Source: Deltaproteobacteria bacterium
GTDB lineage: Bacteria > Myxococcota_A > UBA796 > SXON01
Direction: 5' to 3'
DNA length: 64,000 nucleotides
Assembly (NCBI GenBank): GCA_947445035.1
Contig: CANFCK010000001.1
Location: forward strand, 50,044 to 114,043
Shown here: in pieces, positions 1,014 through 45,119 of the stretch
Layout of the letters: each line of letters opens with the position of its first letter
Position numbering within the stretch: the first letter of the stretch is position 1
Translations under genes and position numbers: made by a program
The notes under the pieces: generated by a model
The model's database searches: none
Seen by the model: only the letters and a program-made list of their open reading frames with translations
What the model was told of the DNA's origin: nothing

Positions 1014-2723
1014 CTAAGCCCGCCCCCCGAGTCGCAATCGGAGCGCATCCAGGCGGTTCTGAACCTCTTCGGTGCCCATGTCGGCGTAGCGCGGCGGCAA
1101 CATCGAACGCGAGCTGGCCTCGAAGACTGCGAGCAGCTCCATGTACTCCAGCATCCGGGTGTCCCGACTGGGCACCACGTCGGTGACGGCCCGATCGAGG
1201 TCGGCGGGGGTGATCTCGGCGCGCTCGTCCCAAGCCGCGAAGTTCGCCGCGGCCAGGACGACCGCCTCAAGCTCCGCGGCGCTGTAGCCCCGGGTGCGCT
1301 CGGCAAACGCCTCCCAGTCGACCTTCTTCTTGAAGGTGAGCTTGGCTCGCCGGGCGATGGCCTGGGCGATGTCGGTTCGTTCGGGCTCAGTCTCCGGGAA
1401 AAAGAACGGTATCTTCAGGTCGAAGCGACCCGGCCGCTTCAGATCGGTGTCGAGCTTGTCGGGCCGGTTGGTCATCATCAGGATGAGCACACGCCCGCGG
1501 TGGCTCGTGTCCGACATGAACTCCTTCAGACGAGCGATGACCCGTGACGATGTTCCGCCGTCGCCCTCCCCTCCCGAAGACAAGCTGCGGTCGGCCTCGT
1601 CGATGATGAGCAGGCAATAGCCGAGGCCGTCCACGACGCGGAGGATCCGCTCCAGATTGCCTTCGGTGCTGCCCACCCACTTTTCCCGGAAGTTCTTGAA
1701 CTTGAGGCAGGTCAGCCCGCTCGACGCCGCGAACGCCTCGGCCACAAAGGTCTTGCCGGTGCCCATCGGCCCGACGAAGATTGCCCCCATCGGCACCGCG
1801 CTCTTGCGGCCGGCTTTGATGGACTCCGAAACCCGCATCAGCGTCTGTTTGACGCCGACGTTCCCACCTACGTCGTCGAAGCTGTGGTGGGGATCGACAA
1901 ACTCGACCAGCCCGTGGCACTCCTGCTCGATGATCGCCTTCTTTCGCCGACTCACCGTCCGAAAGCTGATCGCTTCCTTGGACTGCCGGGCGGCGCGCAG
2001 GATGCCGCGGATCTGGGTGAGCGACAGGCCCGCGGTGAGCTTGGCGAGCTGTTCGTCGGTCAGTTCGCAAGGAACGTCGCGCCGATCCTGGGCCCGCAGG
2101 TACCCCGCCCGCGTCGCCTCGTCGGGCAAAGGCACCTCGATAGCCGCGAGATTTCCACTGGCGACCAGCCGGCGGGAGACGTCGGCCAGCTGCTCGGTGA
2201 CCAAAACCACGACGCTGTTGCCGCCCTGAAGCCCAGGATCAGCGCCCAGGCGCATCAGGGTGACGAGGTTGGCCTTTTCGCCCTCGCCCATAAACGCAAG
2301 GTCGCCGTTGGGCGCGATGGTCTCGATGTAGTCGATGATGACGGCCGCGTTGTGCGCTTCGGTGGTGACGAGGTCCTCGATCAGCGGCAGGACCGCGCCA
2401 GGGCTCTGCGGCAGGTCCCCGACCGCCTCCCGACCGGCGAGGGTGCGGACGTTGTTGACCGCGCGGATGAAGCCCGACTTGTGCGTCGGGGTCGGGAACT
2501 CCAGCCCCTCGGCGAGGTTGTAGTAGGCGACGACGTCCTTGGTCCGCGTGAAGGTGCGCTCCAAGAACACGCGGAGTGAGACGTAGCGGAGGGTGCCGTC
2601 GGCTTCGACCCACGGCTGGACGTCGCGAGCGTTCCCATGGAGCAGGAACACGCAAGCTTCCCCGGCAAGGTAGCGCTGACGCAGGTCGTCGGCCCAGGTG
2701 GGGAGCGTCAGGGTTGGCTTCAT
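1014..2723 (-). CDS. Classical-clade AAA ATPase with a degenerate N-terminal domain
   Basis: Walker A GPMGTGKT, Walker [10 protein letters not shown] and second region of homology [18 protein letters not shown] are present. The N-terminal half has no P-loop (FLLHGNARD sits at the equivalent position). Confidence 0.9.
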
Positions 2724-3016: not shown

Positions 3017-4516
3017 CTACCAGGGAGTCGGCTGGTCCGCCGCAAGGCCGGCGCGGACACGCTCGCCCACGCTGCGCAGCGCCGGATGCAGGATCTGGTC
3101 GTCCTGCCAGAATGGCACCACCTGGCGCACCCGCCCGTGGAGGGCGAGGATCTGCTCGCCAACCGTCTCCGGAGGCCCGTCGATACGGACACCCTCGACC
3201 ACCCGCATCCCGCGCAGGCGCCAATCCAGGCCCTGGGCGGCGACGAGCGCCTCGATCCCGATGATGTCGGCCAGGCATTCCAAGACCCGCAAGGTGAGCC
3301 GCGCCGCGATCGGGCCCATGCTGACGTGATCCTCGTGGTGTTGCACCGTCGGGATGCTGTCGACACTGGCAGGATGGGAGAGCCCCTTACATTCGCTGGC
3401 CAGCGACGCGGCCGTGTACTGGGCGAGCATGAACCCGCTATTGAGGCCCGTGCCTTCGACGAGGAAGCTCGGCAGGTCCTGGGTGAGCGAGGCGGCGGTG
3501 AGGCGAAAGGTCCGCCGCTCGCTCTGAGTCGCGACCTGGGTGAGCGCGATTCGCAGGGTATCCATCGCCAGCGCCACCGGAGCGCCGTGGAAGTTGCCCC
3601 CCTCCACCACGCCCTCGCCTTCGAACCACAGCGGGTTGTCACACGCCCCGTTGAGCTCGTCCGTCACCGTGCCCTCCACCCACTCCAGGCAGTCGAGCGC
3701 GGTGCCCAGGACAGCCGGAGCGGCACGCAGCGAGAACGCGTCTGGGGCACCCACAGCGGCCCCTGGCGCGCCGAGCCGCTCACGAAGCCGCGTCGCGACG
3801 ATCACCCCGCCGCGATGCCCGCGGGCGGACAAAAGCGCGTTCGAGAGGCAGCGGGCGTCGGCCCGCGACACCGCCAGGGTCATCGCGCAGGCGTCCACGG
3901 CTGCGTCCAGGAGGCGGCGCGCACGGTGGACGGAGATCGCCGCCAGCGCGCTGGTGAGCGTGGCGCCGTTGATGACGGAAAGGGCCTCCTTCGGCGTAGG
4001 CGAGAAGCCCGCCAGCGGGGAAGGACCCACCGACCCGTCCGGGCGTTCCGCCGGACCCCCAAGCCCGAAGAGCACCCTGGCCACGTGGGCCAGCGGCGCG
4101 AGGTCGCCAGCGGCCCCCACCGAGCCCTGGCCGGGCACCACCGGGACGATCCCCGTGTTGAGCATGGTGCACATCGCATCCACCAGCGCGGGGCGAACCG
4201 CAGAGTGGCCGCTGGCCAGGACGTTGGCCCGGCAGGCCAACAACGCCCGCACCTGCCCGCTGGGCAGCGGGTCGCCCACACCGGCGCAGTGGTCGAGCAC
4301 AAAGCGCCGCACGCTCTCGTCCCCGGCGGCAGCCGGGGTGCCGAGCAGCACCTTGCGCTTCTGGTCGAGCACGCTCGGAAACGCAGGGTAGCCCCGCGCG
4401 GAACGCTCCATCGCCGGCCGCGCGCGGTCGGCGAGCCCAACCCGGGCGCCACCGGCGATGGCCGCGACGTCAGCCGCGGTCAAGCTCCGGCCGTCGAGCT
4501 CAATGGTCGGCGTCAT
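3017..4516 (-). CDS. HAL/PAL-family (aromatic amino acid lyase fold) paralog with a degenerate active site
   Basis: 499 aa. It has GSVGAAGDLAPLAH where the family has the GSVGASGDLAPLAH MIO triad, plus NGACDNP and QHHEDHVSM family motifs. The N-terminal YG(I/V)NTGFG motif is absent. Its start overlaps the upstream stop (ATGA). Confidence 0.85.
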   Translation of the reverse strand: MTPTIELDGRSLTAADVAAIAGGARVGLADRARPAMERSARGYPAFPSVLDQKRKVLLGTPAAAGDESVRRFVLDHCAGVGDPLPSGQVRALLACRANVLASGHSAVRPALVDAMCTMLNTGIVPVVPGQGSVGAAGDLAPLAHVARVLFGLGGPAERPDGSVGPSPLAGFSPTPKEALSVINGATLTSALAAISVHRARRLLDAAVDACAMTLAVSRADARCLSNALLSARGHRGGVIVATRLRERLGAPGAAVGAPDAFSLRAAPAVLGTALDCLEWVEGTVTDELNGACDNPLWFEGEGVVEGGNFHGAPVALAMDTLRIALTQVATQSERRTFRLTAASLTQDLPSFLVEGTGLNSGFMLAQYTAASLASECKGLSHPASVDSIPTVQHHEDHVSMGPIAARLTLRVLECLADIIGIEALVAAQGLDWRLRGMRVVEGVRIDGPPETVGEQILALHGRVRQVVPFWQDDQILHPALRSVGERVRAGLAADQPTPW

Positions 4517-6015
4517 GCGAACTCCCCCGCCGCGATTCGACAGGCGATGCGCTCGATCGCCTCACCCGGCACCTCCGCCCCCGCGACCAGCGCCTCGACC
4601 AAGGGGAGCGCCGCCTCGGCGCCGGCGCCCAGCCGCACGCCGGGCGCCTCCTCCAGGCGCATACGCAGGGCCCGCGACGCACACAGAAGCTCGATCGCGA
4701 CGACCCGGCGGCTGTTCTGCACCACCTCCCAGAAGCGCCAGGCGGCGGTGGTGGACATGGCCACGTGGTCCTCCTGGTCCTCACAGGTCGGGATGCTGTC
4801 GACGCTCATCGGCCACGCCAGCGCCTTGTTCTCAGAGACGAGCGCCGCCGCCGTGGTCTGCGGAACCAACATGCCCAGGTCCGGACGGTCGCGCCCGGCC
4901 AGGCCCGGCGGCAACCGGGAGCTGAGCGAGCCCGTGGTCAGGCGGTAGAGTCGACGCTCACTCAGCGACGCGAGCTCGGCGACCCCGATCTTCATCGCGT
5001 CGGCGGCGATGCCCACCGGCTCGCCATGGAACAGGCCCGCCGAAAACGCGTGGTTCTCCACGGCCTCGTCCATGAGCATGACCGGGTTGTCGGTGACGCT
5101 GTTGAGCTCGATCTCCACCGCGCGGCGGCCGTACGCCAGCACGTCGCGGGTGGCGCCCAGGACGATGGGCGTACAGCGCAGGGAGTAGGCGTCCTGCACC
5201 TTCTCGGGCATCGAGTCCACGAGCGAGCTGCCGGCCAGAAGCGCCCGCAGGTGCGCCGCGCTGGCGATCGCCCCGGGGTGGGGCCGGAGCGCGTGCACCG
5301 CTGGGTGGAACGCGCGACTGACGCCCCGGAGGGCTTCGATGCTCATGGCCGCCGCGCGCTCGGCTGTGCGCACCAGCACGTCGGCATCCGCCAGCGCCAG
5401 CGCCGCGATGGCCGTCGTGAGCTGGGCACCATTGGTCATCGCCAGGCCGTCCTTGGCCTCGGGGACGAGCGTCGCCAGACCGGCGGCCGCCATCGCCTCC
5501 GGACCCGTCATCAACGCGCCGCCGAACGGGACCTCGCCGCCCTCACCGAATACGACCAGGGCCAGATGGGAGAGCGGCGCAAGGTCGCCCGAGGAGCCAC
5601 AGCTGCCCTGCCGAGGCACGCGGGGGACGACACCCTTGCCGAGCATCGCGCACAGCGTCTCGACCACCAGCGGGCGGCAGCCCGAGGCCCCGCGCGCCAG
5701 CGCGTTCGCCCGCAAAAGCATCATCGCCCGCACGATGTCGTCCGGGCAGGGCGGCCCGACCCCCGCCGCGTGGGAGCGGATGAGGTTCCGCGACAACAGG
5801 CTGGTGTCCGCCGCCGCGATGCGCACCCGCGCCAGCGACCCGAATCCGGTGTTGATGCCATAGACCGGCTGGTCGCCGTGTAGCGTGGCCCGAACCCAGG
5901 CGTAGGAACGCTCCATCTCGGCCCGTCCTGCCCCTGAAAGCGCGACAGCGCCTGCCTGACGGGAGACCCGCACCAACTCAACCAGCGTCAGGGCGCGGCC
6001 GTCCAGCCAGATCAT
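4513..6015 (-). CDS. HAL/PAL-family MIO-type ammonia-lyase/aminomutase (HutH-like motifs, SSG triad)
   Basis: 500 aa with VYGINTGFG, RSHAAGVG, GSCGSSGDLAPLSHL, SVTDNPV and EDQEDHVAMS. All family motifs are present, but the triad is SSG rather than ASG. Confidence 0.9.
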   Translation of the reverse strand: MIWLDGRALTLVELVRVSRQAGAVALSGAGRAEMERSYAWVRATLHGDQPVYGINTGFGSLARVRIAAADTSLLSRNLIRSHAAGVGPPCPDDIVRAMMLLRANALARGASGCRPLVVETLCAMLGKGVVPRVPRQGSCGSSGDLAPLSHLALVVFGEGGEVPFGGALMTGPEAMAAAGLATLVPEAKDGLAMTNGAQLTTAIAALALADADVLVRTAERAAAMSIEALRGVSRAFHPAVHALRPHPGAIASAAHLRALLAGSSLVDSMPEKVQDAYSLRCTPIVLGATRDVLAYGRRAVEIELNSVTDNPVMLMDEAVENHAFSAGLFHGEPVGIAADAMKIGVAELASLSERRLYRLTTGSLSSRLPPGLAGRDRPDLGMLVPQTTAAALVSENKALAWPMSVDSIPTCEDQEDHVAMSTTAAWRFWEVVQNSRRVVAIELLCASRALRMRLEEAPGVRLGAGAEAALPLVEALVAGAEVPGEAIERIACRIAAGEFA

Positions 6016-6725
6016 GGAATGTCCGTCCAGAGCGAGGTCGGCCCGGCCTTGAGCCCGCCGTCCTCACCGACCGTGAACCACGCGCGGAAGCCCTTGTGCT
6101 CGGCCTGGCCGTGCACAAGGACCTCGAAGACCCCGTCCCCGTCGCGATCCACCGGGGCGGTCAGGACCGGCACCGCGCAGCTGGCCTCGGCCCCAGGCAG
6201 GGGCATCGTCGAAATCGTTCCTTCGGCCTCGGCGTCGAGCACCGCGATGGCCGCTTTGCAGTCGCCGGGATCCAGCACCGGCGCGCGCCCCCCTCCGGCA
6301 AGGGGGATTCCATGCGTACCAACGGTCGCGACCGCGAGATAGACCGGCGGCGCCAGCTTGCGGCGCATCTTCACCACGCTCCGCATCGACACGCCCGCGC
6401 CACGCGCCGGATCGATCTCCCGCGTCTTGTGGCTGCCGAGCACGTCCCGCAATCGGAATCCCGCCCGTTCCACCAACGCCGCCGGCACCGGGCCGCCCTT
6501 TTCGACGGCCGGAAGCTCCCGATCGACGATCCACAGCGGCCCGGCCGCCCCGAGGAGCGTCGTGCCGTCCGGACCGGGCGTCGGCACCCGCGTCACCGTC
6601 CCCGTGGGCCCCCAGAGCATGACCGGCGCGGTCAACGTGCCGCGCGCGACCGCGTTGGCCCCCGACTTGTAGACGCCGACGTCGGGGACGGGCGAGGGAC
6701 AGGCGAGTAGCAAGGCCAGGAGCAC
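6012..6725 (-). CDS. Hypothetical lipoprotein, first gene of the HAL-like operon
   Basis: GTG start. The N-terminus MLLALLLAC has a lipobox-like Cys. A DRDGDGVFEVLV FG-GAP-like segment lies near the C-terminus. The stop overlaps the next start by 4 nt. Confidence 0.6.
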   Translation of the reverse strand: MLLALLLACPSPVPDVGVYKSGANAVARGTLTAPVMLWGPTGTVTRVPTPGPDGTTLLGAAGPLWIVDRELPAVEKGGPVPAALVERAGFRLRDVLGSHKTREIDPARGAGVSMRSVVKMRRKLAPPVYLAVATVGTHGIPLAGGGRAPVLDPGDCKAAIAVLDAEAEGTISTMPLPGAEASCAVPVLTAPVDRDGDGVFEVLVHGQAEHKGFRAWFTVGEDGGLKAGPTSLWTDIP

Positions 6726-6748
6726 GCCGGCGCCTTATCCGCGTTTGC

Positions 6749-7279
6749 ATGTCCATCGACCCAGCCACTACCCAACTCCTCGTCGTGGACTACCAAGAGC
6801 GGCTCTTCGGCGCGATGCCCGAGGCGGCGAGGGAGAGTGCCCGCAAAGCCGCCGATACCCTCGTGTTCACCGCCCGCGAGCTGGGCATCCCGGTCACCTT
6901 CACCGAGCAATACCCCCAAGGGCTCGGCGCCACCCTGCCCGAGCTGGTCGCGGTCGATCCCTTCGTGAAGTTGGCGTTCGCCGCGACGGACGAGCCTGGA
7001 TTCGACGCCCGCCTTGCCGGACGACCCCACGTCGTGGTCTTCGGCATGGAGACCCACATCTGCGTCGCCCACACCGCTTTGGGCCTACGCGCCCGCGGAT
7101 TGGCGGTCAGCGTCGCCTACGACGCCTGCCTGTCGCGACGCACTGCCGATTCCGACGCCGGCCTGATTTGGATGCGCGAGGAAGGTGCGCTGATCTTACC
7201 GAGCGAGACCCTTATTTTTGGCTGGTTAGGGCGCGCCGAGGGTCCACTGTTCAAAGCGGTCAGTCGGCGCATTCGTTAG
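6749..7279 (+). CDS. Isochorismatase-family cysteine hydrolase
   Basis: 176 aa. LLVVDYQ near the N-terminus, VVVFGMETHICV with the catalytic Cys context, and overall length all fit the isochorismatase family. Confidence 0.85.
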   Translation: MSIDPATTQLLVVDYQERLFGAMPEAARESARKAADTLVFTARELGIPVTFTEQYPQGLGATLPELVAVDPFVKLAFAATDEPGFDARLAGRPHVVVFGMETHICVAHTALGLRARGLAVSVAYDACLSRRTADSDAGLIWMREEGALILPSETLIFGWLGRAEGPLFKAVSRRIR

Positions 7280-7386
7280 GCCACCAAAAAAAGAAACGCC
7301 GAGCCTCCCTACACGCAGGCGTCTGAAGGGGGACAAACCTGCGCGAGTGGGACGTCTCGGCGAACGGCGCCTATCCCGACCCCCGA

Positions 7387-8883
7387 CTACCCGCCGCACT
7401 CCGGGGTCTCGTTTTCGATCCGCTTGAGCTCGTCCAAGCCGGTGTCCGCGCCCCAGACGTCCTCGCCGATCTTGTTGATCTCGAAGCTGCCGTTCATCGT
7501 CCACACCGAGCCCGAGCTGTCGTTGCTGTAGAAGAGCACCTGGAAGTCACCGACCAGCGGGGAATCCAGCGTGCCCGGCTCAAGCGCGTCGACCTCGTCG
7601 CGCGTGGCCTTCAGCCGAACCCAGCCGGGGTTGATCGAGGACCAGTTGTCGAAGCCCTCGGGCTTGCCGCCCTCCCCAGCCGGGGTCGTGCGCCAGGAAT
7701 TGTCTTCGATCTTGATGGTGAAGGGGAGCGCGTCGCGCGGGAGCGCCGCGTAGTTGGCGAGCTCGTCCTGAACCGGCGCGTAGCTGACGTCGTCCCCATC
7801 CACGCCACCATTGTTGAAATTGTCCTGCAACAACTGCACGAAGTCAGGGTAGTCGGCGATGTTGCAGGAGTCGCCATCCTTGCCGCAATTCAGCTCCGGG
7901 TACTGTTCGGCGCCGACATCGTCGCCGACGCCGTAGCCGGAGACCGTCTTGCCGTCGTCATCCACCCCGACCCACAGCGGGGTAGCGGCGGTGGCCGAGA
8001 AGTCCGCGAAATCGCTGGTGTACATGTACGCGTCTTCGTCGGCGAAGCGCGAGAACGACGCGCCAGCGAGCCAGGTGCGATCGAAGTACCAGTAGTCCCC
8101 GGTGTCGTTGGGGTTGACCTGGGCCGCACCCGAGTTGAGCATGTACACCGTGTAGCCAGCATCCTCCTCGTAGGCCGACGACCACCCGTCGATCCAGTTG
8201 CCATCGTCAAACAGGGTGCGTTCGGTGGCGACGCCGTCGATGTCCACACACTCGGTGGGCTGGAAGTTGGGCTTGATGACCCAGCCGAAGCGCACGTCCC
8301 CGAACTTGGTGTCCATGTGAAGGGTCAGCTGCAGGTCGCCTTCAGAGGTGATGATCGCCTCTTCGCGCCAGGTCGCCACGTCGCCGTGGTTCAGGTAAAA
8401 CGACTTGTCATCAAAGAAGTTGAGGTAGCGCGCAGTCTGCACCGTGCAGTCATCCGGCGTGAGCATGTCGCCGTCGGGATCGTTCTCGGGGTCGTCATCG
8501 TGCGCCTCGGCGCAGCAGAACTCCTCGTAGTTGGCGTCCCAGCCCGGAATGAGCGCGTCCCGGATCCGCACCGGATTGTCGGAGTACGGCGCCGCACCGA
8601 ACGTGCGACAGTCGAACGGGGTCAGATCGTACGCATCCTGAAACGCCTTTTCCGCCTTGACCTTGTCTGCCCAGCATTCGTCGGCGAAAATCTGTTCGGG
8701 GTCGATTTCGTCGGCGAGGGGATCATTCTGATCGTATTCGCACTGTACGGCGGCTTCGTCGCGACGGAGACGCTGTACGTTGCTCGACGTGGCCGCGGCA
8801 AAGTACATGGCGTACGTTCCCTTGAACGTGGCGTCATGGGGGTCACAGCCGCCGAGTAGGGCGAGCACGAGGGGAAGGGACAT
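7387..8883 (-). CDS. Acidic secreted lipoprotein, hypothetical
   Basis: Internal ATG at 8881..8883 gives MSLPLVLALLGGC (lipobox). The protein is rich in Asp/Trp/Tyr and has several Cys pairs. The upstream part of ORF 7387..9177 is Arg-rich junk and would overlap the neighbouring gene. Confidence 0.7.
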   Translation of the reverse strand: MSLPLVLALLGGCDPHDATFKGTYAMYFAAATSSNVQRLRRDEAAVQCEYDQNDPLADEIDPEQIFADECWADKVKAEKAFQDAYDLTPFDCRTFGAAPYSDNPVRIRDALIPGWDANYEEFCCAEAHDDDPENDPDGDMLTPDDCTVQTARYLNFFDDKSFYLNHGDVATWREEAIITSEGDLQLTLHMDTKFGDVRFGWVIKPNFQPTECVDIDGVATERTLFDDGNWIDGWSSAYEEDAGYTVYMLNSGAAQVNPNDTGDYWYFDRTWLAGASFSRFADEDAYMYTSDFADFSATAATPLWVGVDDDGKTVSGYGVGDDVGAEQYPELNCGKDGDSCNIADYPDFVQLLQDNFNNGGVDGDDVSYAPVQDELANYAALPRDALPFTIKIEDNSWRTTPAGEGGKPEGFDNWSSINPGWVRLKATRDEVDALEPGTLDSPLVGDFQVLFYSNDSSGSVWTMNGSFEINKIGEDVWGADTGLDELKRIENETPECGG

Positions 8884-8927
8884 CTTCGACTCCGACCCCG
8901 TCCTATAGGCCGTCAGGGGGCGGTTCG

Positions 8928-9899
8928 TCAAGCACCACGGCTGATCGAAGCGGCGATTCCACCGCCGTGTTCCGGGTACCGCCAGACGAACGCGAGCTCC
9001 TTTTCGAGGCGGTCCACGTTCAACCGCGCGCTGGCGGTGAACAGCCTCAGGTTGTCGTTGGTAAATCTGGGCTTTCGACCCATGGCGGCCGCCATCCGTT
9101 CGTTCTGCTCGGCGAGCGCCGCCTGAATCACGCTCGGGACCCACGTCGACCAGAAGCGCACCGGCTTGCCGCCGCAACGGGCCGTCACCGCCGCGTAGAA
9201 CTCAGACAGCGTGGGCGTTCCGGGGGCGCTGACGTTCCACAGGCCGGGCTCCCCCCGTGTGCCGATCGCCATGAGCGCGGCCACACAGTCATCGATGTGG
9301 ACGACCGGAACGCGGTTGCGTCCTTCGCCCGGGAGCCAAGCATGCCCCGCCCGGATGCGATCCTCCTGCATGAATCGTAGGCCGGGACCGTACACCGCCG
9401 CAATGCGCGCCACCCGCAGCCGAAGCCCGGTAGCGGCGGCGACCTCGCGCAGCCGGGCCTCGGCAGCGAGCTTGGCCCGACCATACTGGGTCTGCGGTGC
9501 CGCCGGGTGCGCCTCGCCCACCCACAGGCCGCTGCGGTCCCCGTACACGGCGCAACTCGATGCGAAAGTGAACGAGCTCAGCCTGTTGGCGTGCTTGCCG
9601 GCCGCGACGGCGAGCGGTTCCGTGCCGACCCGGTTGAGCCGATCGGCGTCGATTCGCCCGGCACCGCGGAGGCCGCCGGCAAGGTGCCAGACGTGGTCGG
9701 CCTCGGCGACCCCTCGCTCGATGGCGGCGGCATCCTCGAGGTGCCCGAGCAGCAGCCTTGCTCCGTCGGCAACCACGGTCCGCCCTCGCGCTTCGTCGCG
9801 GACGAGCACGGTCACGTCGTGCCCCGCCGTCAGCAACGCCCGAACGAGCGGGAGCCCGATCTGTCCGGTCCCGCCGGTCACGAAGGAGCGCTCAGCCAT
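8928..9899 (-). CDS. NAD-dependent epimerase/dehydratase family protein
   Basis: Internal ATG at 9897..9899 gives MAERSFVTGGTGQIGLPLVRALL, a Rossmann GxxGxxG motif. The rest is an extended-SDR-like body. Confidence 0.85.
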   Translation of the reverse strand: MAERSFVTGGTGQIGLPLVRALLTAGHDVTVLVRDEARGRTVVADGARLLLGHLEDAAAIERGVAEADHVWHLAGGLRGAGRIDADRLNRVGTEPLAVAAGKHANRLSSFTFASSCAVYGDRSGLWVGEAHPAAPQTQYGRAKLAAEARLREVAAATGLRLRVARIAAVYGPGLRFMQEDRIRAGHAWLPGEGRNRVPVVHIDDCVAALMAIGTRGEPGLWNVSAPGTPTLSEFYAAVTARCGGKPVRFWSTWVPSVIQAALAEQNERMAAAMGRKPRFTNDNLRLFTASARLNVDRLEKELAFVWRYPEHGGGIAASISRGA

Positions 9900-9904
9900 C
9901 GGCC

Positions 9905-12247
9905 CTACGGCGCGGTGGCGGCGACGCCGGCGGCGTACCAGAGGGAGCCGGAGTGGTCCACCGCGTCGGCGGTGTCGCTGTCGTCTCCCAACCAAAATCC
10001 GTCGGGCACGCCGTCGCCGCTGAGGTCGCCGACAAACCCGCGACCGCGGGCTTCGCGAGACATGTACCCCAAAACCGGCACCCCGGCGGCGCCACCCAGG
10101 CCGCGCCACGTCGCAAGCACGCCGTCGACCTGCACCAAAATGTCGGCTACGCCGTCGCCGTCGGCGTCACCGGCGGACACCGCCCCCCCGAGCCCGAGCG
10201 TGCTTTCGGCGCCGCCAATACGCACTGCGGTGTCCAGACCGTCGGACCACACCACGTCATCGACGCCATCGGCGTCGAAGTCACCCACCGCGATGGTGCA
10301 GACCCCCTCGCAACCCAGAAGATCGTCCACGCCGTCTCCGTCGGTGTCCGCCGCGACGACGTCGCCCAGCGGGCCGATGCCGGGCTCCGCCACCGCAGTC
10401 CCGTCCCCAGGGAGCCAAAGGCGATCGCCTGCCGCGTCGACCACCACCGCCTCCGCCCCGAGGAAGTCCCCACACGCCAGCATGGCCCCGGGCGCCACCA
10501 CATCGGCACCGGCGCTGGTCAGCCTACCCGCGTCATCCACCGAAAGGTGCCTGACCAATGTCGACAGCGCGCCGTCCACCAAGATCCAGACGTCGTGACC
10601 ACAAACGGCCAGATCGAGCGGCTCTTCCCCCGGAAGGAATGAAAGCGCGATGGCCGGGGTGAGGGCCTCGTTGTTGGCGCCGACGATTGGGGTGCCGACG
10701 AAGGCCTGGACCTGGGCGCTGCCGTTGTCCAAAAGCGCGACGAGATCGATGATCCCGTCGTCGTTGAGGTCACCCATCCACGGCTCACCGACGAGGCCGA
10801 TGTCGAAGAGACCGTCGAAGGCGCGCTCGATCGACCACCCGGTTTCGTCGGCTTCGGTCCCGGGGTCGTCCGCGACGCGCGCGGCGACGTGTCCAACTGC
10901 CGCCGCGCGAGACAAAACCAGGTCGGGGACGTCGTCGCCCGTGAAGTCGGGCGCGTCGATCGTGGCCGCGTACGGCAACCCGGAGATCGTCTCAACCACA
11001 AAAGTGCCGATTTCGGCCGACCAGTGAGCGCGTGCCAGCGCGCCCGGGGTCGACATCAGCACGTCAAGGGAGCCGTCGCCATCGGCATCTGCAAGGGTGG
11101 CGGCCAGCCCACTGATGGGCTCCAAGCTGCTGGATATCTGGAAAACGGTCCCGATCTCATCGTCGTCCATGACCATGACCGCCGTGTAGCCGCCACTGTC
11201 GTCGGCCAGCGGACCGCTGATGAGCACATCGTCGCGACGGTCACCATCAACGTCGAAGCCGCCGCGCATGTCGGCACCCGCCCCGATGCCGAGACTCGAA
11301 TCCATCGCGCTGGTGGCGAGCCACCCATCCCCCTGCCACTCGTAGCGGCGGGTGACGCCGTCACCGGCCAGCAGCGACACCTCCGCGACGCCGTCCTCAT
11401 CGAGGTCCTCGACGGATGCGCCGTGCACGCCCAGGTCCACATCGAGGACCGCGGTGGCGGCCCAGCCGCCTTGACCGTCCCCCGGCATCCAGACCACGGC
11501 GCCGGAGTCAGCGTGGCCTACCACCAGGACAAGGTCGACCACCGTGTCGTCGTCCGCGGTCTGAACCACCGCGGCCCGGACGGTACCCGCCGAGGGCCGC
11601 CACCCGCCGGCGAAGGCCAGTCCGCCGTCGGGACGGCCGCGCAAAAGCACCACCTCGTCGTCGCTGAAGGCCAGCAAGTCATCCACGCCATCATCGTCCA
11701 GGCGCACCGTCCGCACGGACTTCACCGGCGATGCCAGGTTGAGCACCCGAACGGCAGCGCCCCCATCGAACGACCACCACCACAACTCATGGTCGCGGGC
11801 GGTGATCACGCCGCCGCCGGCGTGCGCCACGGGACTGCCCTCCCCTCCCGAGAGCCACGCAGGGAAGCCCGGCCGGACGTCGGCACGCGCGGTGACGAAG
11901 GCACTGCCGGTGGCCTGGAACGTCCCCGCTGTGGCGCCTACCTCGAAGCGCCCGGGGCTCGAAGCCGAAAGCTCGGCGGTGGCCCAACCGAAAGCATCGG
12001 GGGTGGCGCTGGTCGCGCCCAAGGTCCCGGCCGAGGTCAGGGCCAGGTCGCCCCCACCGACCGACGCGCCGACCTCGTTGACGGTCAAGATCGTCACCAG
12101 GGCCGAACCGACCCCGGAACCCTGTCCGACCCACAGACCGGTTGGCGACTCCGACATCGCTTCTACCCGCACCGGAACGAGGTCCTCGGGGTCGCAACCC
12201 TGGCAACCGGGGAGCACGAGGACCAGCGTGACCGACAGCGCCCTCAC
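9905..12247 (-). CDS. FG-GAP/VCBS repeat lipoprotein
   Basis: MRALSVTLVLVLPGC is a lipobox. Repeated DxDGDGxxDLxx / DxNDDGIIDLV calcium-binding FG-GAP motifs run throughout the 780 aa. Confidence 0.85.
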   Translation of the reverse strand: MRALSVTLVLVLPGCQGCDPEDLVPVRVEAMSESPTGLWVGQGSGVGSALVTILTVNEVGASVGGGDLALTSAGTLGATSATPDAFGWATAELSASSPGRFEVGATAGTFQATGSAFVTARADVRPGFPAWLSGGEGSPVAHAGGGVITARDHELWWWSFDGGAAVRVLNLASPVKSVRTVRLDDDGVDDLLAFSDDEVVLLRGRPDGGLAFAGGWRPSAGTVRAAVVQTADDDTVVDLVLVVGHADSGAVVWMPGDGQGGWAATAVLDVDLGVHGASVEDLDEDGVAEVSLLAGDGVTRRYEWQGDGWLATSAMDSSLGIGAGADMRGGFDVDGDRRDDVLISGPLADDSGGYTAVMVMDDDEIGTVFQISSSLEPISGLAATLADADGDGSLDVLMSTPGALARAHWSAEIGTFVVETISGLPYAATIDAPDFTGDDVPDLVLSRAAAVGHVAARVADDPGTEADETGWSIERAFDGLFDIGLVGEPWMGDLNDDGIIDLVALLDNGSAQVQAFVGTPIVGANNEALTPAIALSFLPGEEPLDLAVCGHDVWILVDGALSTLVRHLSVDDAGRLTSAGADVVAPGAMLACGDFLGAEAVVVDAAGDRLWLPGDGTAVAEPGIGPLGDVVAADTDGDGVDDLLGCEGVCTIAVGDFDADGVDDVVWSDGLDTAVRIGGAESTLGLGGAVSAGDADGDGVADILVQVDGVLATWRGLGGAAGVPVLGYMSREARGRGFVGDLSGDGVPDGFWLGDDSDTADAVDHSGSLWYAAGVAATAP

Positions 12248-13197
12248 GGCGTGGTCCAGAATACCCGCGCGTAGACGTAGCCGGTGGAGGGCGTGCTGAC
12301 CTGATCGGCGCGGCCACCCTCATCGATGCGGAAAACCCCACGAGATGCGGAGTAGATCAAGAATGACCCGTCCCCCGGGTCGTAGGCGCAGTCCGACACA
12401 TCGGCGAAGTCGTCATCGTGGTAGGCCACAGGCCGCGCGTCCCCGCCGATGATTTTGTTGATCGAATAGACGGCGCCCGCCGGAGAGCAGGCAAAGGGCG
12501 CTTCTTCGGGGCCGACGAAGACGTTCGTCGCGCGGGTGAGGCTGGTGTCGTAGTCTTCTTTGACCAGTTGGACGTTGCCGTCGCCGTCCACGGTCCAGAG
12601 GTCGGGGCCCCCGGCGCTCGGGTCGACGAAGAAGGCCCGATTTTCACTGCCGCCGACGTAACGGATTTCCGAGAGGCTACCCGACTCGAGCACCGAGGCG
12701 ATCTCGGCCAAGTCGGCGGAGAGGGTCTGCAGCCCGCCCTGGTAGGCCACCAGCAGGTGCCTGCCAAGCCGGGTGGTGTCGTAGTTCTCGCTTTCTGCCC
12801 CGACGTCGTTGACCCTCGTGGTGCCGCCGTCCGCGTCCAGCGTGTAGAGGCCGCCAACGCCGACGAGCAGCCCGGTTCGGTTCCACGGCTCGTAGTACGG
12901 CGCGCCCGCCAGTTCGACCGGGACCGACCATTCCGCTTCCACTTCGCTGGTCACCGGATCGAAGACCCGGATGATGCCCCTTTCACCCCCCCTCATCGAG
13001 GTGACCCAACCCACCACCGGATCGCCGGACGGCCCCGTGTCGGGGTCGCCGGTGTCGTCGGTGTCCGTGTCGGGATTGGCGCACGGCATGTCGCTGGTGC
13101 AGGTGACCTGCACGTCCTCAAAGACGTGGCAACCAGCGAGCAACAGCAGGACACTCAGCGACGACAAACGACTCTCCGGCGGATTCCCCGCCACCAT
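12244..13197 (-). CDS. Hypothetical lipoprotein (beta-propeller-like composition)
   Basis: ATG at 13195..13197 gives MVAGNPPESRLSSLSVLLLLAGC (lipobox), followed by a TDTDDTGDPDTG linker. The exact start is uncertain because it overlaps the upstream gene's 3' end by about 43 nt. Confidence 0.6.
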   Translation of the reverse strand: MVAGNPPESRLSSLSVLLLLAGCHVFEDVQVTCTSDMPCANPDTDTDDTGDPDTGPSGDPVVGWVTSMRGGERGIIRVFDPVTSEVEAEWSVPVELAGAPYYEPWNRTGLLVGVGGLYTLDADGGTTRVNDVGAESENYDTTRLGRHLLVAYQGGLQTLSADLAEIASVLESGSLSEIRYVGGSENRAFFVDPSAGGPDLWTVDGDGNVQLVKEDYDTSLTRATNVFVGPEEAPFACSPAGAVYSINKIIGGDARPVAYHDDDFADVSDCAYDPGDGSFLIYSASRGVFRIDEGGRADQVSTPSTGYVYARVFWTTP

Positions 13198-14639
13198 AGC
13201 AGGGGCGCCACGATCATGGCACCCCCTCCCGCGCCGCAAGCGCCTTCGGTCTCCGCGTCGAGGGACCAAAACCGCGCCTTCCCTCCGCCCAGCCACGGGT
13301 CCGGAGGTTGACCCGCTGATCGCCCGTCAAGCGCGCTGGCTACGAGACGATCAGCAGCCTCTCTCGGGGTGGCGTCAGGGTCAGCGCTCATCGCCACGGC
13401 GACCGCGGCGGCCACCGCCGGCGTCGACGCGCTGGTGCCGTAAAACCCGTTCGTCCCGAAGATGCGCGAGGTGAGGCCATCCGGACCGGCGATGTCCGGC
13501 TTGTAGAAGCCGGCGTGGGTGGGCCCGAACGAGCTGAAGGACTCGGCGCTGTTGTGCGCGTAGCCCGACGCGCGGACGGCCCCGACCGAGAACGCGCTGA
13601 CGCTGGACGCCGGGTCTGCAAGGCCGCCGGGCTCGGTGAAATAGAGGTGTCCGCCACGGGCCTGGACCGACAGCGCGACGCCCCCGACGCCCCGGCGGCG
13701 ATGGATGCGGAGCCAATACCAGTCCTCCGTTTCGGCGCGGATGGAAATGCGCTCAACGGGCGCGCATTGATCGGCGTCGAGGTCCTGGTCGTCGTCGGCG
13801 CGACCAACGATTTCCCCCTCCCGATTGACTGCGACCACGTCGAAGTCGTTGCGACCGCAACCCCAAAACTCGTCCCACGAGACAAACGCCGTCGCGCCCC
13901 CGGCGCTCAGATAAATCGGCAGGTACGACCCGCCCCACGGAAAGTCCATCCACTCGTCGTGGTCGACGTCGTCCCACGGGCCGATCCAGTGCTCCTGGGC
14001 GTAGTTCCCGGCACTGGTGACCAGGAGCGTCCCGCCCTCCGCAAGGTGGCCCGCACTGTCGGCGAGCGCGCCGCTGCCGTCGTAGAAGGAGTTGTTGAAG
14101 AACGACATCGACATGCTCACGACGTCGACCTCATTGCGCAGCGCCCACTCCACCGCGTTCTCGAAGCTCGTCGGGCCGTTCACGCGCACCAGGTGCAGCT
14201 CGGCCTCGGGTGCCAGATCGGCGATGACCTCGGCGCAGGCGACGCCGTGGGCGCCCTCCTCGTAGCTGAAACGCGGGCGCAGCGTGTCCATCGGCACGTC
14301 GCAACTGCGCGTCAGTTCGCAGTCGTGCGTTTCGACATCCCCGAGCTCTTCGGACAGCACCGCAGCGTTGAACCACTGCACGTCGAAGACCGCGACCCGG
14401 ACGCCGCCACCGAGGAAGCCGGCGTCGGCCCAGGGGGCCATCGCCATGGCCTCGACTGCCTCTTCCGCGAAGTATCCGTCGACCACCGGGGGCTCCTCGA
14501 TGCGCCAAGGCGTGCCCGCGGCCGGCGCTTCCAGGAGCACACTGCCCGTCGCGCTCCCGGAAATGGCCCCGGGCCAATCGGGAACGTCCACGCGGATGCG
14601 ATCCACGACGCCCACCTCAGGAAGTTCGACGTCGGCCAT
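13155..14639 (-). CDS. S8 (subtilisin-like) serine peptidase with a MYXO-CTERM-like tail
   Basis: The catalytic triad contexts are VAVFDVQ (Asp), HGVACAEV (His) and GTSASTPAVAAA (Ser). The C-terminus is ACGAGGGAMIVAPLLWWRGIRRR. No obvious N-terminal signal peptide. Confidence 0.85.
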   Translation of the reverse strand: MADVELPEVGVVDRIRVDVPDWPGAISGSATGSVLLEAPAAGTPWRIEEPPVVDGYFAEEAVEAMAMAPWADAGFLGGGVRVAVFDVQWFNAAVLSEELGDVETHDCELTRSCDVPMDTLRPRFSYEEGAHGVACAEVIADLAPEAELHLVRVNGPTSFENAVEWALRNEVDVVSMSMSFFNNSFYDGSGALADSAGHLAEGGTLLVTSAGNYAQEHWIGPWDDVDHDEWMDFPWGGSYLPIYLSAGGATAFVSWDEFWGCGRNDFDVVAVNREGEIVGRADDDQDLDADQCAPVERISIRAETEDWYWLRIHRRRGVGGVALSVQARGGHLYFTEPGGLADPASSVSAFSVGAVRASGYAHNSAESFSSFGPTHAGFYKPDIAGPDGLTSRIFGTNGFYGTSASTPAVAAAVAVAMSADPDATPREAADRLVASALDGRSAGQPPDPWLGGGKARFWSLDAETEGACGAGGGAMIVAPLLWWRGIRRRVVCRR

Positions 14640-25063: not shown

Positions 25064-25306
25064 ATGCGCCAGTACAACGTCCACGAGGCCAAAACCCAGC
25101 TCTCGGCGCTCCTCGAGCGCGTCGAGGGTGGGGAGGAGATCATCATCGCCCGGTCAGGTCGGCCGATCGCGCGCATCGTGCCGCTACGGGAAGTGCGGCG
25201 ACCGCGGGTGCTCGGCCTCTACCGGGGTCAGCCCTTCGCCATCGCGGACGACTTCGACACCTTGCCCGCTGATATCCAGGAGCGCTTCGAGGGCGAAGGC
25301 GGATGA
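25064..25306 (+). CDS. Phd/YefM-family type II antitoxin
   Basis: 80 aa: MRQYNVHEAKTQLSALLERVEGGEEIIIARSGRPIARIVP, the canonical Phd/YefM N-terminus. The stop overlaps the toxin start (ATGA). Confidence 0.88.
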   Translation: MRQYNVHEAKTQLSALLERVEGGEEIIIARSGRPIARIVPLREVRRPRVLGLYRGQPFAIADDFDTLPADIQERFEGEGG

Positions 25307-25689
25307 GGCTGCTCCTGGACACGCACGTACTGCTGTGGGCGCTGCTCGATCCCGACCGGCTGACCGCGCGCGCGGCCGCGGCTCTCCAAGACCCGCAGAA
25401 CTCGCTGTTCGCCAGCGCAGCTTCGGCCTGGGAGGTCGCGATCAAACAATCGCTCGGGAAGCTCACCTTGCCCGGACCCGCCGACGTATGGCTCCCCGAG
25501 GCCTGCCTCAAGACCGGTATCGGCTGGCTGCCGGTGTCCGCTGCCGACGCGCTCGCCGTCGGTCGCCTGGTCTGGCACCATCGCGACCCCTTCGATCGCT
25601 TGCTCATCGCCCAGGCTTGCGACGGGATGATCCTCGTCACCCACGACGACGCCTTCGCCCCCTACGCCGTCCCCGTGCTCTGGGCCTGA
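25303..25689 (+). CDS. vapC: PIN-domain toxin, VapC family
   Basis: 128 aa: MRLLLDTHVLLWAL (first acidic residue), EVAIK, and the HRDPFDRLLIAQA motif typical of this VapC subgroup. Confidence 0.9.
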   Translation: MRLLLDTHVLLWALLDPDRLTARAAAALQDPQNSLFASAASAWEVAIKQSLGKLTLPGPADVWLPEACLKTGIGWLPVSAADALAVGRLVWHHRDPFDRLLIAQACDGMILVTHDDAFAPYAVPVLWA

Positions 25690-34003: not shown

Positions 34004-37000
34004 TCAGACGTTGCGGCGGTACTCTCCGCCCACTTCGTACAGGGCGTGGCTGATCTGCCCGAGGGACGCGACACGAACGGTGCGCATCAGCTCTGCGAAC
34101 AGGTTGCCGCCGTCGAGCGCCACCTGCCGCAGGCGGGCCAGCGCCTCCGGTGCGTCGGCACGGTGTTTTTGTTGGAAGGCCGCTACGGCATCGATCTGAG
34201 CTTGCTTCTCAACGGCGCTGCTGCGGCGTAGCTCGATGGTGGGCGGCTCCCAAGCGGCGCCGAGCGTGGTGGGGTCCTGAAAGGTGTTGATGCCGATGAT
34301 CGGCAAGGTACCGTCGTGCTTCTGCTCCTCGTAGAACAGCGATTCTTCCTGAATCTTTCCGCGTTGGTACTGCGTTTCCATCGCGCCGAGCACGCCCCCT
34401 CGGCTGTCGATGCGCTCGAACTCGACAAGCACGGCCTCCTCGACGAGATCGGTCAGCTCATCGACGATGAAGCTGCCCTGGAGCGGGTTCTCGTTCTTGG
34501 CCCAGCCCAGCTCCTTGTTGATGATCATCTGAATCGCCATCGCACGGCGCACGGACTCCTCTGTCGGTGTGGTCACAGCCTCGTCGTAGGCGTTGGTGTG
34601 CAAGGAGTTGCAGTTGTCGAAGAGCGCGAGGAGCGCCTGAAGACTGGTACGGATGTCGTTGAACTGAATCTCCCGCGCGTGGAGCGACCTGCCGCTGGTC
34701 TGGATGTGATACTTCAGCTTCTGACTACGTTCATCGGCGCCATACCGCTCCTTCATTGCGACGGACCAGATGCGCCGCGCCACCCGACCGATGACCGTGT
34801 ACTCGGGGTCGAGGCCATTGCTGAAGAAGAAGCTGAGGTTTGGGGCAAAGTCGTCGATCTTCATTCCGCGCGCCAGGTAGTACTCCACGAAGGTGAAGCC
34901 GTTGGAGAGCGTGAACGCCAGCTGGCTGATGGGGTTGGCCCCGGCTTCGGCGATGTGGTAGCCCGAGATGCTGACGCTATAGTAGTTGCGAACGTCGTTT
35001 TCGACGAAGTAACTCTGGATGTCGCCCATCATCCTCAGCGCAAACTCGGTCGAGAAGATGCAGGTGTTCTGCGCCTGATCTTCTTTGAGGATGTCCGCCT
35101 GGACGGTGCCGCGCACCGTTCGGAGCACATGGGCCTGAATCGCCACGTTCTCCCCCGCGTCAGGGGCTCGGCCGTGCGTTGCGAGAAAGGCGTCCACCTG
35201 CTGGTCGATCGCGGTGTTCATGTACATGGCCAGCAGCATGGGCGCTGGGCCGTTGATGGTCATGCTCACGCTGGTGTTCGCCGCGCAGAGGTCGAATCCC
35301 CCGTACAAAACCTTCATGTCGTCGAGCGTCGGCACACTCACGCCGGACTCTCCGATCTTCCCGTAGATGTCGGGCCGGATGGCAGGGTCTTCGCCGTAGA
35401 GCGTGACGCTGTCAAACGCAGTCGAGAGGCGCTTCGCGGGCTCGCCCTGACACAGGTAGTGGAACCGGGCGTTGGTCTTGGCCGGCCCTCCCTCACCCGC
35501 GAACATCCGCTTGGGGTCCTCGTTGGTGCGCTTCAACGGGAAGACACCGGCGGTGTAGGGGAAGAAGCCCGGAAAGTTCTCCAGCATCGACCACTGGACG
35601 ATGTCGCCGTCATCGGTGAATCGCGGTGTAGCGATGCGCGGGACCTTGAGCCGGCTGAGCGAGAGGCTGACCAGCGGCTGGGTGATGGCCTTGCCGCGCA
35701 CCTCGTAGGTATAGGTGTCCTGCCGGTAGCGCTCTACCAGCGGTGCGTAGGCGCCCAACAAGGTGTCGGCGTCAGCGTCGAGCGTGATGGCATCGCGCTT
35801 GTGGAGGAGTGCCACCCCCAGCTCCGGCACCTCAGCCGCGGCACGAACGAGCGCCTGGCGGCGTCGGGCACGGCTGGCGTTGTCGGCGGCGCGGCGACGG
35901 TAACCGCGGCAGGTGTCGCTGATCTCCCCGAGATACCGCTGCCGATCGGGCGGGACGATGCGCCGCCGAGGCGGGCTGGCGCGGGTGCCGGGGTCGGGGA
36001 CGGAGCTCGGGTAGGCCCGGCCGGTGTGCTCGGCGAGCTCACCCAAAAGCGCCAGGTACGCGGCGTTGACGCCCGGGTCGTTGAACTGCGAGGCGATGGT
36101 CCCGAAGACCGGCAGCGCTTCGTCAGGCGTAGAGAAGAGCTCGCCGTTGCGCTTGACCTGTTTGCGCACGTCCCGCAGCGCGTCCTCGCCACCACGACGC
36201 TCGAACTTGTTGACCACCACGAGGTCCGCGTGGTCGAGCATGTCGATCTTCTCGAGCTGGCTGGGCGCGCCGAACTCCGGCGTCATCACGTAGACCGCGA
36301 TGTCCGCCAGCTTGACGATGCCGGCATCGGACTGGCCGATGCCGCTGGTCTCCACAAAGATGACGTCCACCCCGGAGGCGCGGCAGATCTCGACGGCTTC
36401 AGCGGTCGCGGCGCTCAATTCCCCCTTTTCGCCGCGCGTTGCCAGCGAGCGCATGAACACGCCGTCCCCGTGGATGGCGTTCATCCGGATGCGGTCGCCC
36501 AACAAGGCGCCGCCGCTCTTCTTTCGGGTGGGGTCGATGCTGAGCACGGCGAGGCGGTGCGCCGGAAAGTCGCGCCGGTATCGACGAACCAACTCGTCAC
36601 AGAAACTCGACTTTCCAGCGCCGCCGGTGCCGGTCAAACCGATGATGGGAGCTGGGTTTTTGACGGCCAGCGCGGCGATCTGGGCCGCGGTCTCGGCCGG
36701 GAGACGATCGTTTTCGGCCAACGAGATCGCACGGGCGATGCTGCCGGCCCGACCGTGCGTCAGCCCCACCAGGACATCGCTCCCCACGCCGAGGTCGAAG
36801 TCGGACCGGCGCATCAGGTCCTCGATCATCCCCACCAGGCCCATGCGGCGGCCGTCTTCGGGACTGTAAATGCGCTCCACCCCATAGGCGTGGAGCTCCC
36901 GAATCTCTTCCGGGACGATCACCCCGCCCCCACCGCCGAAAACCTTGATGTGCCCGGCGCCGAGCTCACGAAAGAGGTCGACCATGTATCGGAAATACTC

Positions 37001-37228
37001 GTTGTGGCCGCCCTGGTACGAGCTGACCGCCACCGCCTGGGCGTCTTCCATGATCGCCGCATCGACGATCTCGCGCACCGACCGGTTGTGCCCGAGGTGG
37101 ACCACCTCGGCACCAAGGCTCTGCAAGATGCGCCGCATCACATTGATCGAGGCATCGTGCCCATCGAAGAGCGATGCCGCGGTCACGATGCGGACCGGGT
37201 TCACCGGATGGAAACGTTGGCTCTGCAC
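34004..37228 (-). CDS. icmF: Fused isobutyryl-CoA mutase (B12-binding + MeaB-like G protein + mutase catalytic domain)
   Basis: 1074 aa. The N-terminal B12 domain has [10 protein letters not shown] (the DxHxxG-type His ligand region). The central P-loop is [12 protein letters not shown]. The C-terminal part is a methylmalonyl-CoA-mutase-like TIM barrel. Confidence 0.92.
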
Positions 37229-42853: not shown

Positions 42854-43747
42854 TTACCCCTCCCACCACTCCCGCGGCAAGACCACCTCCGCCTCTTCCT
42901 CCGCCTCGGGAATCGGCCAGATGTCGCCCCAGAGCGACTGCCCCCCGTCCATGGTCAGCACCTGCCCGGTGACAAACGCCGCCGCTGGCGACAGCAAGAA
43001 CGCGATGCCGGCGGCGATCTCCTCGGCCGTCGCGAAACGTTTCATCGGCACCCGCCGCTGGAAGTCCTGGAGGTCCACCACGCCCGCCGGGTAGTTGCGA
43101 AAGCCCGAGCTGGCGACCAGGCCGGGTGCCACGCAGTTGACGCGCACCCCGCGGCCCGCCCACTCCACCGCCAAGGTTCGCGACAAGGCCTCGACGCCCG
43201 CGCGCGCGGCGACGCTGTGGGCCATCCCCGGAAAGCCCCGCCGGGACAACATCGTGACGTTGCAGATCGCGCCGCCGTGGTCCAACATCCACGCTTTCGC
43301 GACCGCCTGGGTGACCCCCCACTGCCCGGTCAGGTTGGTGGCAACCACCGCATCCCACCCACGGGGCGTGATGGCCTCAGCGGGGGAAAAGAACTGGCCC
43401 CCTCCGTTGTTCACCAGCAGGTCTATGCGTCCGAAACGACCGAGGGTGGCGGCCACCAGTCGATCGATCGCGTCGCGATCGCGCACGTCGCACACCACGC
43501 CGAGCACCTCGCGCCCCAGCTCCTCGGAGAGCCCCTTCGCCGCCGGGGCGATGTTGCTGTCCCTCCGGGAGGCAATGGCCACCTGGGCCCCCATCCGTCC
43601 AAGCTGGCGTGCCGTCGCGACACCGATACCGGTTCCACCCCCGGTCACCAGCGCTACTTTGCCGATGAACACGTCGTCGCGGAGGACCGAAGCCGCCGCG
43701 ATCGCCGCGTCCGCGCGCCCTTGCAGCGGGTCCTTGGCGTCAGCCAC
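42854..43747 (-). CDS. SDR-family oxidoreductase (enoyl/dienoyl-CoA reductase-like)
   Basis: Cofactor motif VALVTGGGTGIG and an NNGG-type motif (LVNNGGGQF) are present. The GTG at 43745..43747 is preferred over the ATG at 43798 because it reduces the overlap with hisS to 8 nt. Confidence 0.85.
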   Translation of the reverse strand: MADAKDPLQGRADAAIAAASVLRDDVFIGKVALVTGGGTGIGVATARQLGRMGAQVAIASRRDSNIAPAAKGLSEELGREVLGVVCDVRDRDAIDRLVAATLGRFGRIDLLVNNGGGQFFSPAEAITPRGWDAVVATNLTGQWGVTQAVAKAWMLDHGGAICNVTMLSRRGFPGMAHSVAARAGVEALSRTLAVEWAGRGVRVNCVAPGLVASSGFRNYPAGVVDLQDFQRRVPMKRFATAEEIAAGIAFLLSPAAAFVTGQVLTMDGGQSLWGDIWPIPEAEEEAEVVLPREWWEG

Positions 43748-45032: not shown

Positions 45033-45119
45033 CGGGGTTGAATAACCCGGCCGCCGGCCGCCTCTCCCCGCCCGCCCAGCCGCAGCGCGCACAACAGGCG
45101 TCGCGACGGGATGGGCAAC

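Follow-up and report, generated by a model that had tools for sequence, protein, structure and literature searches.

Histidine ammonia-lyase (HAL), phenylalanine ammonia-lyase (PAL), tyrosine ammonia-lyase (TAL) and the related aminomutases, all of which depend on a methylidene-imidazolone (MIO) electrophile, are textbook homotetramers and widely used biocatalysts. The closest described system, HutH of Pseudomonas putida (PDB 1B8F/1GKM; PF00221, PRK09367/TIGR01225), is a homotetramer of one gene product, usually encoded in a hut operon. We analysed a 64,000-nucleotide stretch of contig CANFCK010000001.1 of a Deltaproteobacteria bacterium (the window), in which two co-translated HAL paralogs, here called HAL-A and HAL-B (A and B), are found instead (Table 1). 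A resembles HutH in its triad, Tyr53 loop and active-site residues, while B has the same fold but neither the MIO triad nor the Tyr loop; in addition, several canonical residues are gone from A and no hut genes lie nearby.

Other described systems share single features with this locus. Pseudomonas fluorescens likewise carries two HAL-family paralogs in one locus, hutH1 being dispensable for growth on histidine (PMC8034625), although that pair lies within a classical hut locus with transporters and hutU and is not reported as overlapping or as forming a complex. The trimethylammonia-lyases (ergothionase and histidine betaine lyase) lack the Ala-Ser-Gly triad, as B does, but share the HAL fold and still have the residues that bind the imidazole and the carboxylate; with trimethylamine as a good leaving group, they can do without MIO (bioRxiv 10.64898/2026.04.22.720169). 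They are nevertheless stand-alone enzymes that keep the catalytic Tyr, whereas B lacks that Tyr and is only distantly similar to them. Plant PAL isoforms can form mixed tetramers of paralogous MIO-enzyme subunits, all of which are to our knowledge catalytically competent, with no dedicated dead subunit; hutH1 and hutH2 of P. fluorescens, too, are both said to have a normal triad. In the aspartase/fumarase fold, duck delta1/delta2-crystallin and the intragenic complementation of argininosuccinate lyase involve tetramers with three-subunit active sites, and an inactive paralog or mutant subunit can lend working parts to the hybrid tetramers. These proteins belong, however, to another family without MIO, and the crystallins represent recruitment to lens structure rather than a dedicated bacterial two-gene operon. 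Full-text literature searches found no report of a HAL/PAL-family pseudoenzyme partner or of a heteromeric HAL.

A matched the Pfam family Lyase_aromatic (PF00221) with 548 bits over residues 9-463 (profile positions 1-454 of 466), passed the cutoff of the NCBIfam model PRK09367 'histidine ammonia-lyase' (541.7 bits; cutoff 524) and fell just under that of the hutH equivalog TIGR01225 (523.6 bits; cutoff 539.15). In HMMER alignments with the solved references, P. putida HAL (PpHAL, 1GKM) and T. acidophilum HAL (7TQR), A aligned end to end with PpHAL (336 bits) and its Ser-Ser-Gly (SSG) triad fell on Ala142-Ser143-Gly144. Eight residues are important in HAL by mutagenesis, namely Tyr53, His83 of the Ser-His dyad, Asn195, Gln277, Tyr280, Arg283, Phe329 and Glu414 (PMC11432326). 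A has all of them, as Tyr52, the Ser81-His82 dyad, Asn195, Gln274, Tyr277 and Arg280 (within KVQDAYSLRC), Phe329 and Glu415, and the seven corresponding to PpHAL His83 to Glu414 are 100% conserved in the A clade. The first-pass annotation, made from the letters of the window, had stated that A keeps every family motif, which holds for the triad, the Tyr loop and these eight residues but not for Asn328, the 369-386 loop, Ser418 or the C-terminal Arg and Asp. It had also singled out SSG in place of ASG; the reading of the letters was correct, but the triad is an ordinary MIO-forming variant, the rule being X-Ser-Gly with X as Ala, Ser, Cys or Thr (PMC9002059), and, of 149 other HAL-like cluster representatives having the Tyr loop, about 10 share it. 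Among 120 A homologs, 118 carried SSG and two ASG; a B homolog is on record for each of the latter, suggesting that they are paired too. By its residues, A looks like a catalytically competent HAL-family enzyme.

B gave a weaker match to Lyase_aromatic (390 bits), confined to residues 69-435, with no profile match for the part before residue 69, and scored far under both NCBIfam cutoffs. Its Ala-Ala-Gly (AAG) fell on Ala142-Ser143-Gly144 of PpHAL, and the alignment together with a codon check disposed of the concern, voiced in the first-pass annotation, that the triad position might have been misread. The same change in RxPAL (S153A, ASG to AAG) abolished both the MIO UV signal and activity (PMC3903478); judged by their triad, B-type proteins cannot form MIO. 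The loss of the YGxNTGFG loop was borne out as well, since the segment before residue 69 lies off the family profile, and the motif YGxNTGxG was found neither in B nor in any of its 120 homologs. At the column of Tyr53, 79% of the aligned B sequences have Val. Gln277 is replaced by Pro and Tyr280 by Phe. B retains His76, Asn183, Arg264, Phe309 and Glu395, corresponding to PpHAL His83, Asn195, Arg283, Phe329 and Glu414; the residues that position the substrate are thus retained, and only those engaged in the chemistry are lost. An AlphaFold2 model of B reached a pLDDT of 88, and its best PDB matches were HALs (TM-score ~0.84-0.85).

Both proteins also carry near-invariant, clade-specific residues in the pocket region. 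In A these are a Cys two residues before the triad (GSCGSSG) and a Cys in PTCEDQEDHVAM, and in B the Cys next to His83 (HC), the Cys in SECK and the His-His in TVQHHEDHV; the B set comprises Cys84, Cys395 and His412-His413, and the A set Cys140 and Cys410. Such residues are a hint that the pocket has been remodelled, and they may reflect contacts between subunits or a change of substrate.

The AAG triad was present in all 120 best B homologs (52-92% identity), which, where named, come from metagenome-assembled genomes of Myxococcota, Deltaproteobacteria or Pseudomonadota, and more than 100 columns were invariant across 20 B sequences (53-74% identity). Against the nearest relative, locus L001, the ratio of nonsynonymous to synonymous substitution rates (dN/dS) was 0.069 for B and 0.057 for A. 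The B family is compact: a profile search of 1.84 billion cluster representatives returned eight at 446-754 bits, followed by canonical HALs at no more than 442 bits, with divergent B-like proteins (P0263, P0267 and P0307) at lower profile scores. Since the pattern is conserved in every relative examined, it lies far beyond chance. In B the catalytic residues are gone while the fold and purifying selection are kept, as in a pseudoenzyme subunit; from these comparisons, the reading of B as a pseudoenzyme rather than a decaying gene is well supported.

To follow the pairing of the two genes, B loci were scanned in one genome per species, yielding 49 B-type loci, all from uncultured bacteria. An A-type gene lay directly upstream of B in 46/46 loci with enough upstream DNA, all of them in uncultured Myxococcota, and the motif GSCGSSGDLAP, the counterpart of GSVGAAGDLAP in B, was invariant in the A partners of all 46. 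The two open reading frames (ORFs) of the window, their SSG and AAG triads and their ATGA overlap were exactly as first described, on ORF, alignment and codon checks. Across the pairs, the A stop and B start overlapped by 4 nt in 34/46 and by 8 nt in 7/46, and the genes overlapped in 45/46, which fits equimolar co-production. The divergent P0263 and P0267 likewise lie behind an SSG partner with an 8-nt overlap and, viewed from the A side, three of four A-type proteins looked up had another Lyase_aromatic gene next in line. When 128 non-redundant neighbours at the related loci were assigned to Pfam families, a census that is approximate because the GC3-based gene caller fails on low-GC loci, 127 families were hit, none of them more than twice; as the neighbours vary in this way, the two-gene pair is a self-contained conserved unit, and the finding holds far beyond one window.

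Some variation was seen among the pairs. In a B sub-clade (L026, L036, L042, L044, L045 and L048) AAGDLAPLAH has become AAGSxxLAH (TAGS in L044); the overlap with A in this sub-clade is 8 nt in five loci, and 11 nt in L048 by the start call used. The most divergent pairs (L081:2948-4372 and L084:3127-4428), in which the B motif reads GSLG[AS]AGCP, adjoin a GGDEF-EAL gene, and in L081 an alpha/beta-hydrolase gene abuts the B stop.

A neighbour-joining tree with 200 bootstraps recovered the A clade and the B clade in 200/200 replicates each; the suggestion of the first-pass annotation that AAG paralogs might form one clade accompanying an SSG partner therefore held. We then compared A and B of the same 40 genomes, with mean pairwise identities of 61.5% and 55.1%, respectively, with canonical HALs. 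The Tyr53 loop, Ser82, Ser143, Gln277, Tyr280 and Cys284 were kept in A and changed or lost in B, while Asn328, Ser379, Met382 and Ser418, which are 87-97% conserved in canonical HALs, were changed in A and 97-100% conserved in B. The same was true of a C-terminal Arg and Asp (93% and 96% in canonical HALs), changed in A and 100% conserved in B, and of position 386, where A has Thr but B has the Tyr of the HAL consensus. Over PpHAL positions 369-383, column entropy was 1.38 in A and 0.49 in B, and the C-terminal 40 residues were poorly conserved in A, while B kept the canonical WxDD..LHP motif.

HAL active sites are assembled from three monomers (PMC11432326). The strict pairing, the overlap, the selection on B and the complementary loss of ancestral residues suggest that A and B are subunits of a single, obligately heteromeric histidine ammonia-lyase, most likely A2B2 with two composite active sites, and on balance we lean towards this interpretation. 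The residue patterns, their conservation, the pairing and the overlap are observed; the physical association, its stoichiometry, the role of each residue by subunit and the substrate are inferred, and would be as follows. In the PAL, TAL and TAM structures of Ritter & Schulz 2004, Louie et al. 2006 and Christianson et al. 2007, one chain reportedly carries the MIO together with the Tyr loop, His83 and Asn195, with Gln277, Tyr280 and Arg283 coming from a second and Glu414 and the 382-386 pocket wall from a third. If these chain roles are right, B has lost the first- and second-chain roles and kept the third, while A has relaxed in part of the third. The electrophile, formed from the Ser-Ser-Gly of A, would then share its subunit with the catalytic Tyr loop, the Ser-His dyad and Asn195, and a second A subunit would add Gln277, Tyr280 and Arg283; B would supply the third-subunit part of the pocket, made up of the regions around Phe329 and Glu414, the 369-386 loop and Tyr386 in the pocket, together with the canonical C-terminal motif. 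Of the three A2B2 arrangements of a D2 tetramer, only one yields complete sites, two in number, namely that in which A meets A across the Tyr280 axis; the conserved and the decayed parts of B also fit this arrangement. Each tetramer would thus hold two complete A/A'/B sites and two dead B/B'/A sites, and its product would be urocanate.

Several observations weigh against the A2B2 heterotetramer. A and B appeared as sister clades in only 3/200 bootstraps, meaning that the split is old or the B branch long. Phe329 and Glu414 are still present in A, and the 399-428 regions of A and B are equally conserved, so that an A4 homotetramer could be active alone. No explicit statement of the chain assignment of Tyr280/Arg283, Glu414 and 382-386 was found in the papers searched, and the case for an association of A with B is indirect. 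Positions 140 and 410 are Cys/Cys in A and Val/Val in B; Cys140 and Cys410 could form a homotypic A-A contact, hence a different topology. In a published homology model, the Cys at the MIO-minus-2 position lies close to a Cys of another chain, but RxPAL Cys420 could not be mapped to HAL numbering. The two genes are moreover unlinked in one freshwater lineage, with orphan B genes in L011 and L018 and an orphan A (P0168). The orphan AAG genes (L011:5380-6861 and L018:10001-11494) lie behind a 4HBT thioesterase gene and the orphan SSG gene (L087:4001-5515) between a rubrerythrin-like gene and a methyltransferase gene; orphan A and orphan B thus differ in their surroundings, which are conserved for each, and a single lake-metagenome project is the source of them all.

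Part of this evidence fits an alternative that we regard as unlikely, though deserving weight, in which there are two homotetramers: A4, a self-sufficient HAL, and B4, a non-catalytic ligand-binding partner such as a histidine or urocanate sensor, buffer or regulator, the coupling of the genes reflecting co-regulation with no shared complex. A indeed has all eight mutagenesis-defined residues and a competent triad, and B keeps binding residues rather than catalytic ones, which is typical of ligand-binding pseudoenzymes; the unlinked genes of the freshwater lineage and the like-with-like residues at positions 140 and 410 agree with separate tetramers as well. Two homotetramers leave unexplained, however, why A has lost canonical residues that both stand-alone HALs and B keep, and why 41/46 pairs overlap by 4 or 8 nt, and the literature searches revealed no precedent for a free-standing HAL homolog that is both MIO-less and Tyr-less.

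Less probable still is that B is itself an active enzyme with MIO-independent chemistry, relying either on a good leaving group in its substrate, in the manner of ergothionase and histidine-betaine lyase, or on newly acquired residues, for which His393-His394, Cys77, Cys376 and Lys53 would be candidates. Active MIO-less members of PF00221 do exist in these two enzymes (bioRxiv 10.64898/2026.04.22.720169; PDB 6S7J), and the near-invariant clade-specific pocket residues of B (in QHHEDHV, HC and SECK) would suit such a role. The characterised trimethylammonia-lyases, however, keep the Tyr that abstracts the beta-proton, whereas B lacks the whole Tyr loop and Tyr280; B also scores far higher against HAL (7TQR, 263 bits) than against ergothionase (6S7J, 107 bits), and its obligate pairing with A would be left unexplained. 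That B is a functionless, decaying HAL duplicate, as the loss of four catalytic features could suggest and as the first-pass annotation had allowed, has next to no probability and is refuted by an ORF intact in all relatives, the universal AAG, the invariant columns, the low dN/dS and a monophyletic clade spanning ~47-92% identity.

Returning to the heteromeric enzyme, the pair may be the first natural heteromeric MIO enzyme, an idea that we put forward tentatively: an ancestral HAL would have been duplicated and the copies would have decayed complementarily, until neither was sufficient alone. One copy would keep the electrophile and the catalytic base, and the other only the trans-acting pocket wall, plus the clade-specific His-His pair beside Glu414, leaving two working sites per tetramer instead of four and possibly an altered specificity or regulation.

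The surroundings of the pair were those of an ordinary chromosome, with genes for RuvB, FtsQ, histidyl-tRNA synthetase (HisRS), lipoyl synthase, an E2 component, an IcmF-like mutase, cyanophycin synthetase and RND pumps. In agreement with the first-pass annotation, which had seen no hutU/hutI, polyketide synthase (PKS) or non-ribosomal peptide synthetase (NRPS) genes nearby, no urocanase, imidazolonepropionase, PKS or NRPS domains were found among the ~40 larger ORFs of the window, and hutU, hutI and hutG were absent both from the window and from the listed families of the 128 neighbours at the 49 related loci. A secondary-metabolite or hut context was thereby ruled out. PADLOC gave no match for A, B or the 237-aa ORF upstream of A and only generic AAA and subtilase matches for neighbours, which are not conserved beside the pair; a defence-system reading was rejected.

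The stop of the 237-aa ORF shares an ATGA with the start of A. This ORF is kept at 49-86% identity in L001-L007, L009, L013, L022 and L046 and is missing from more distant pairs; it is the first gene of the operon in the present lineage only. The block upstream of the pair, which also holds a divergent isochorismatase-like gene besides the 237-aa lipobox-like ORF, is syntenic in ~10 closer relatives, with parts remaining in the distant L016, L017, L032, L036, L041 and L044. A larger operon of the S8 peptidase, FG-GAP, epimerase, 596-aa, 237-aa, A and B genes was rejected, the synteny being limited to closer relatives. Downstream, the 569-aa AAA+ ATPase shows weak matches to the anti-phage proteins IetA/IteA, its ~300 N-terminal residues being without a match. 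L001 has a 97% identical counterpart, set apart from HAL-B by ~1.5 kb of additional DNA; the ATPase was rejected as a conserved partner, not being kept beside the pair elsewhere. Further genes of the window, at 34004-37228 (-), 43740-48014 (-) and 25303-25689 (+), are that of the IcmF-like protein, a fused B12 mutase with a MeaB GTPase, that of cyanophycin synthetase, which adjoins the histidyl-tRNA synthetase gene, and that of a PIN-domain toxin, which lies between two RND efflux operons.

Table 1. Features of the HAL-A/HAL-B locus and its surroundings, in positions of the window
Feature	Position	Strand	Remarks
HAL-A	4513..6015	(-)	500 aa, HAL-family; predicted catalytic subunit
HAL-B	3017..4516	(-)	499 aa; paralog with HAL fold
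A/B junction ATGA	4513..4516	(-)	A stop codon shared with B start codon (translational coupling)
GGGGGAG, Shine-Dalgarno-like	4522..4528	(-)	5 nt before the ATG of B, within the 3' end of A; putative function, from sequence reading
A triad Ser141-Ser142-Gly143 codons	5587..5595	(-)	Predicted MIO-forming; inside clade-invariant GSCGSSGDLAP; SCGSSGDLA encoded at 5578-5604 (codons checked directly)
A VYGINTGFG	5839..5865	(-)	Loop with catalytic Tyr (Tyr53 of P. putida HAL); codons checked
B triad-position Ala135-Ala136-Gly137 codons	4106..4114	(-)	Invariant in 120/120 homologs; SVGAAGDLA encoded at 4097-4123 (codons checked directly)
B residues 40-68	4313..4399	(-)	Stand-in for Tyr loop; clade consensus PSVLxxKRxxLVG, no conserved Tyr
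237-aa ORF	6012..6725	(-)	Lipobox-like N-terminus VLLALLLAC; no Pfam match
Upstream block of the pair	6012-14639 and 6749-7279	(-) and (+), respectively	
S8 peptidase	13155-14639		Upstream block
350-aa ORF	12244-13296		Upstream block; no Pfam match
FG-GAP protein	9905-12247		Upstream block
SDR/epimerase	8928-10109		Upstream block
596-aa ORF	7387-9177		Upstream block; no Pfam match
569-aa AAA+ ATPase	1014-2723	(-)	CDC48/FtsH-like module, residues 310-520

B-type proteins, where named by their sources, are called 'histidine ammonia-lyase' or 'aromatic amino acid lyase', an annotation that would need correcting, MIO formation being impossible for them by their triad. If true, the heteromeric reading would illustrate how tetramers whose active sites draw on three subunits can drift into obligate heteromers, would provide a clean bacterial model of the origin of a pseudoenzyme by complementary degeneration and would reveal the trans-acting parts of the pocket. 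It also raises the question of what role a hut-unlinked HAL plays in uncultured freshwater and soil Myxococcota.

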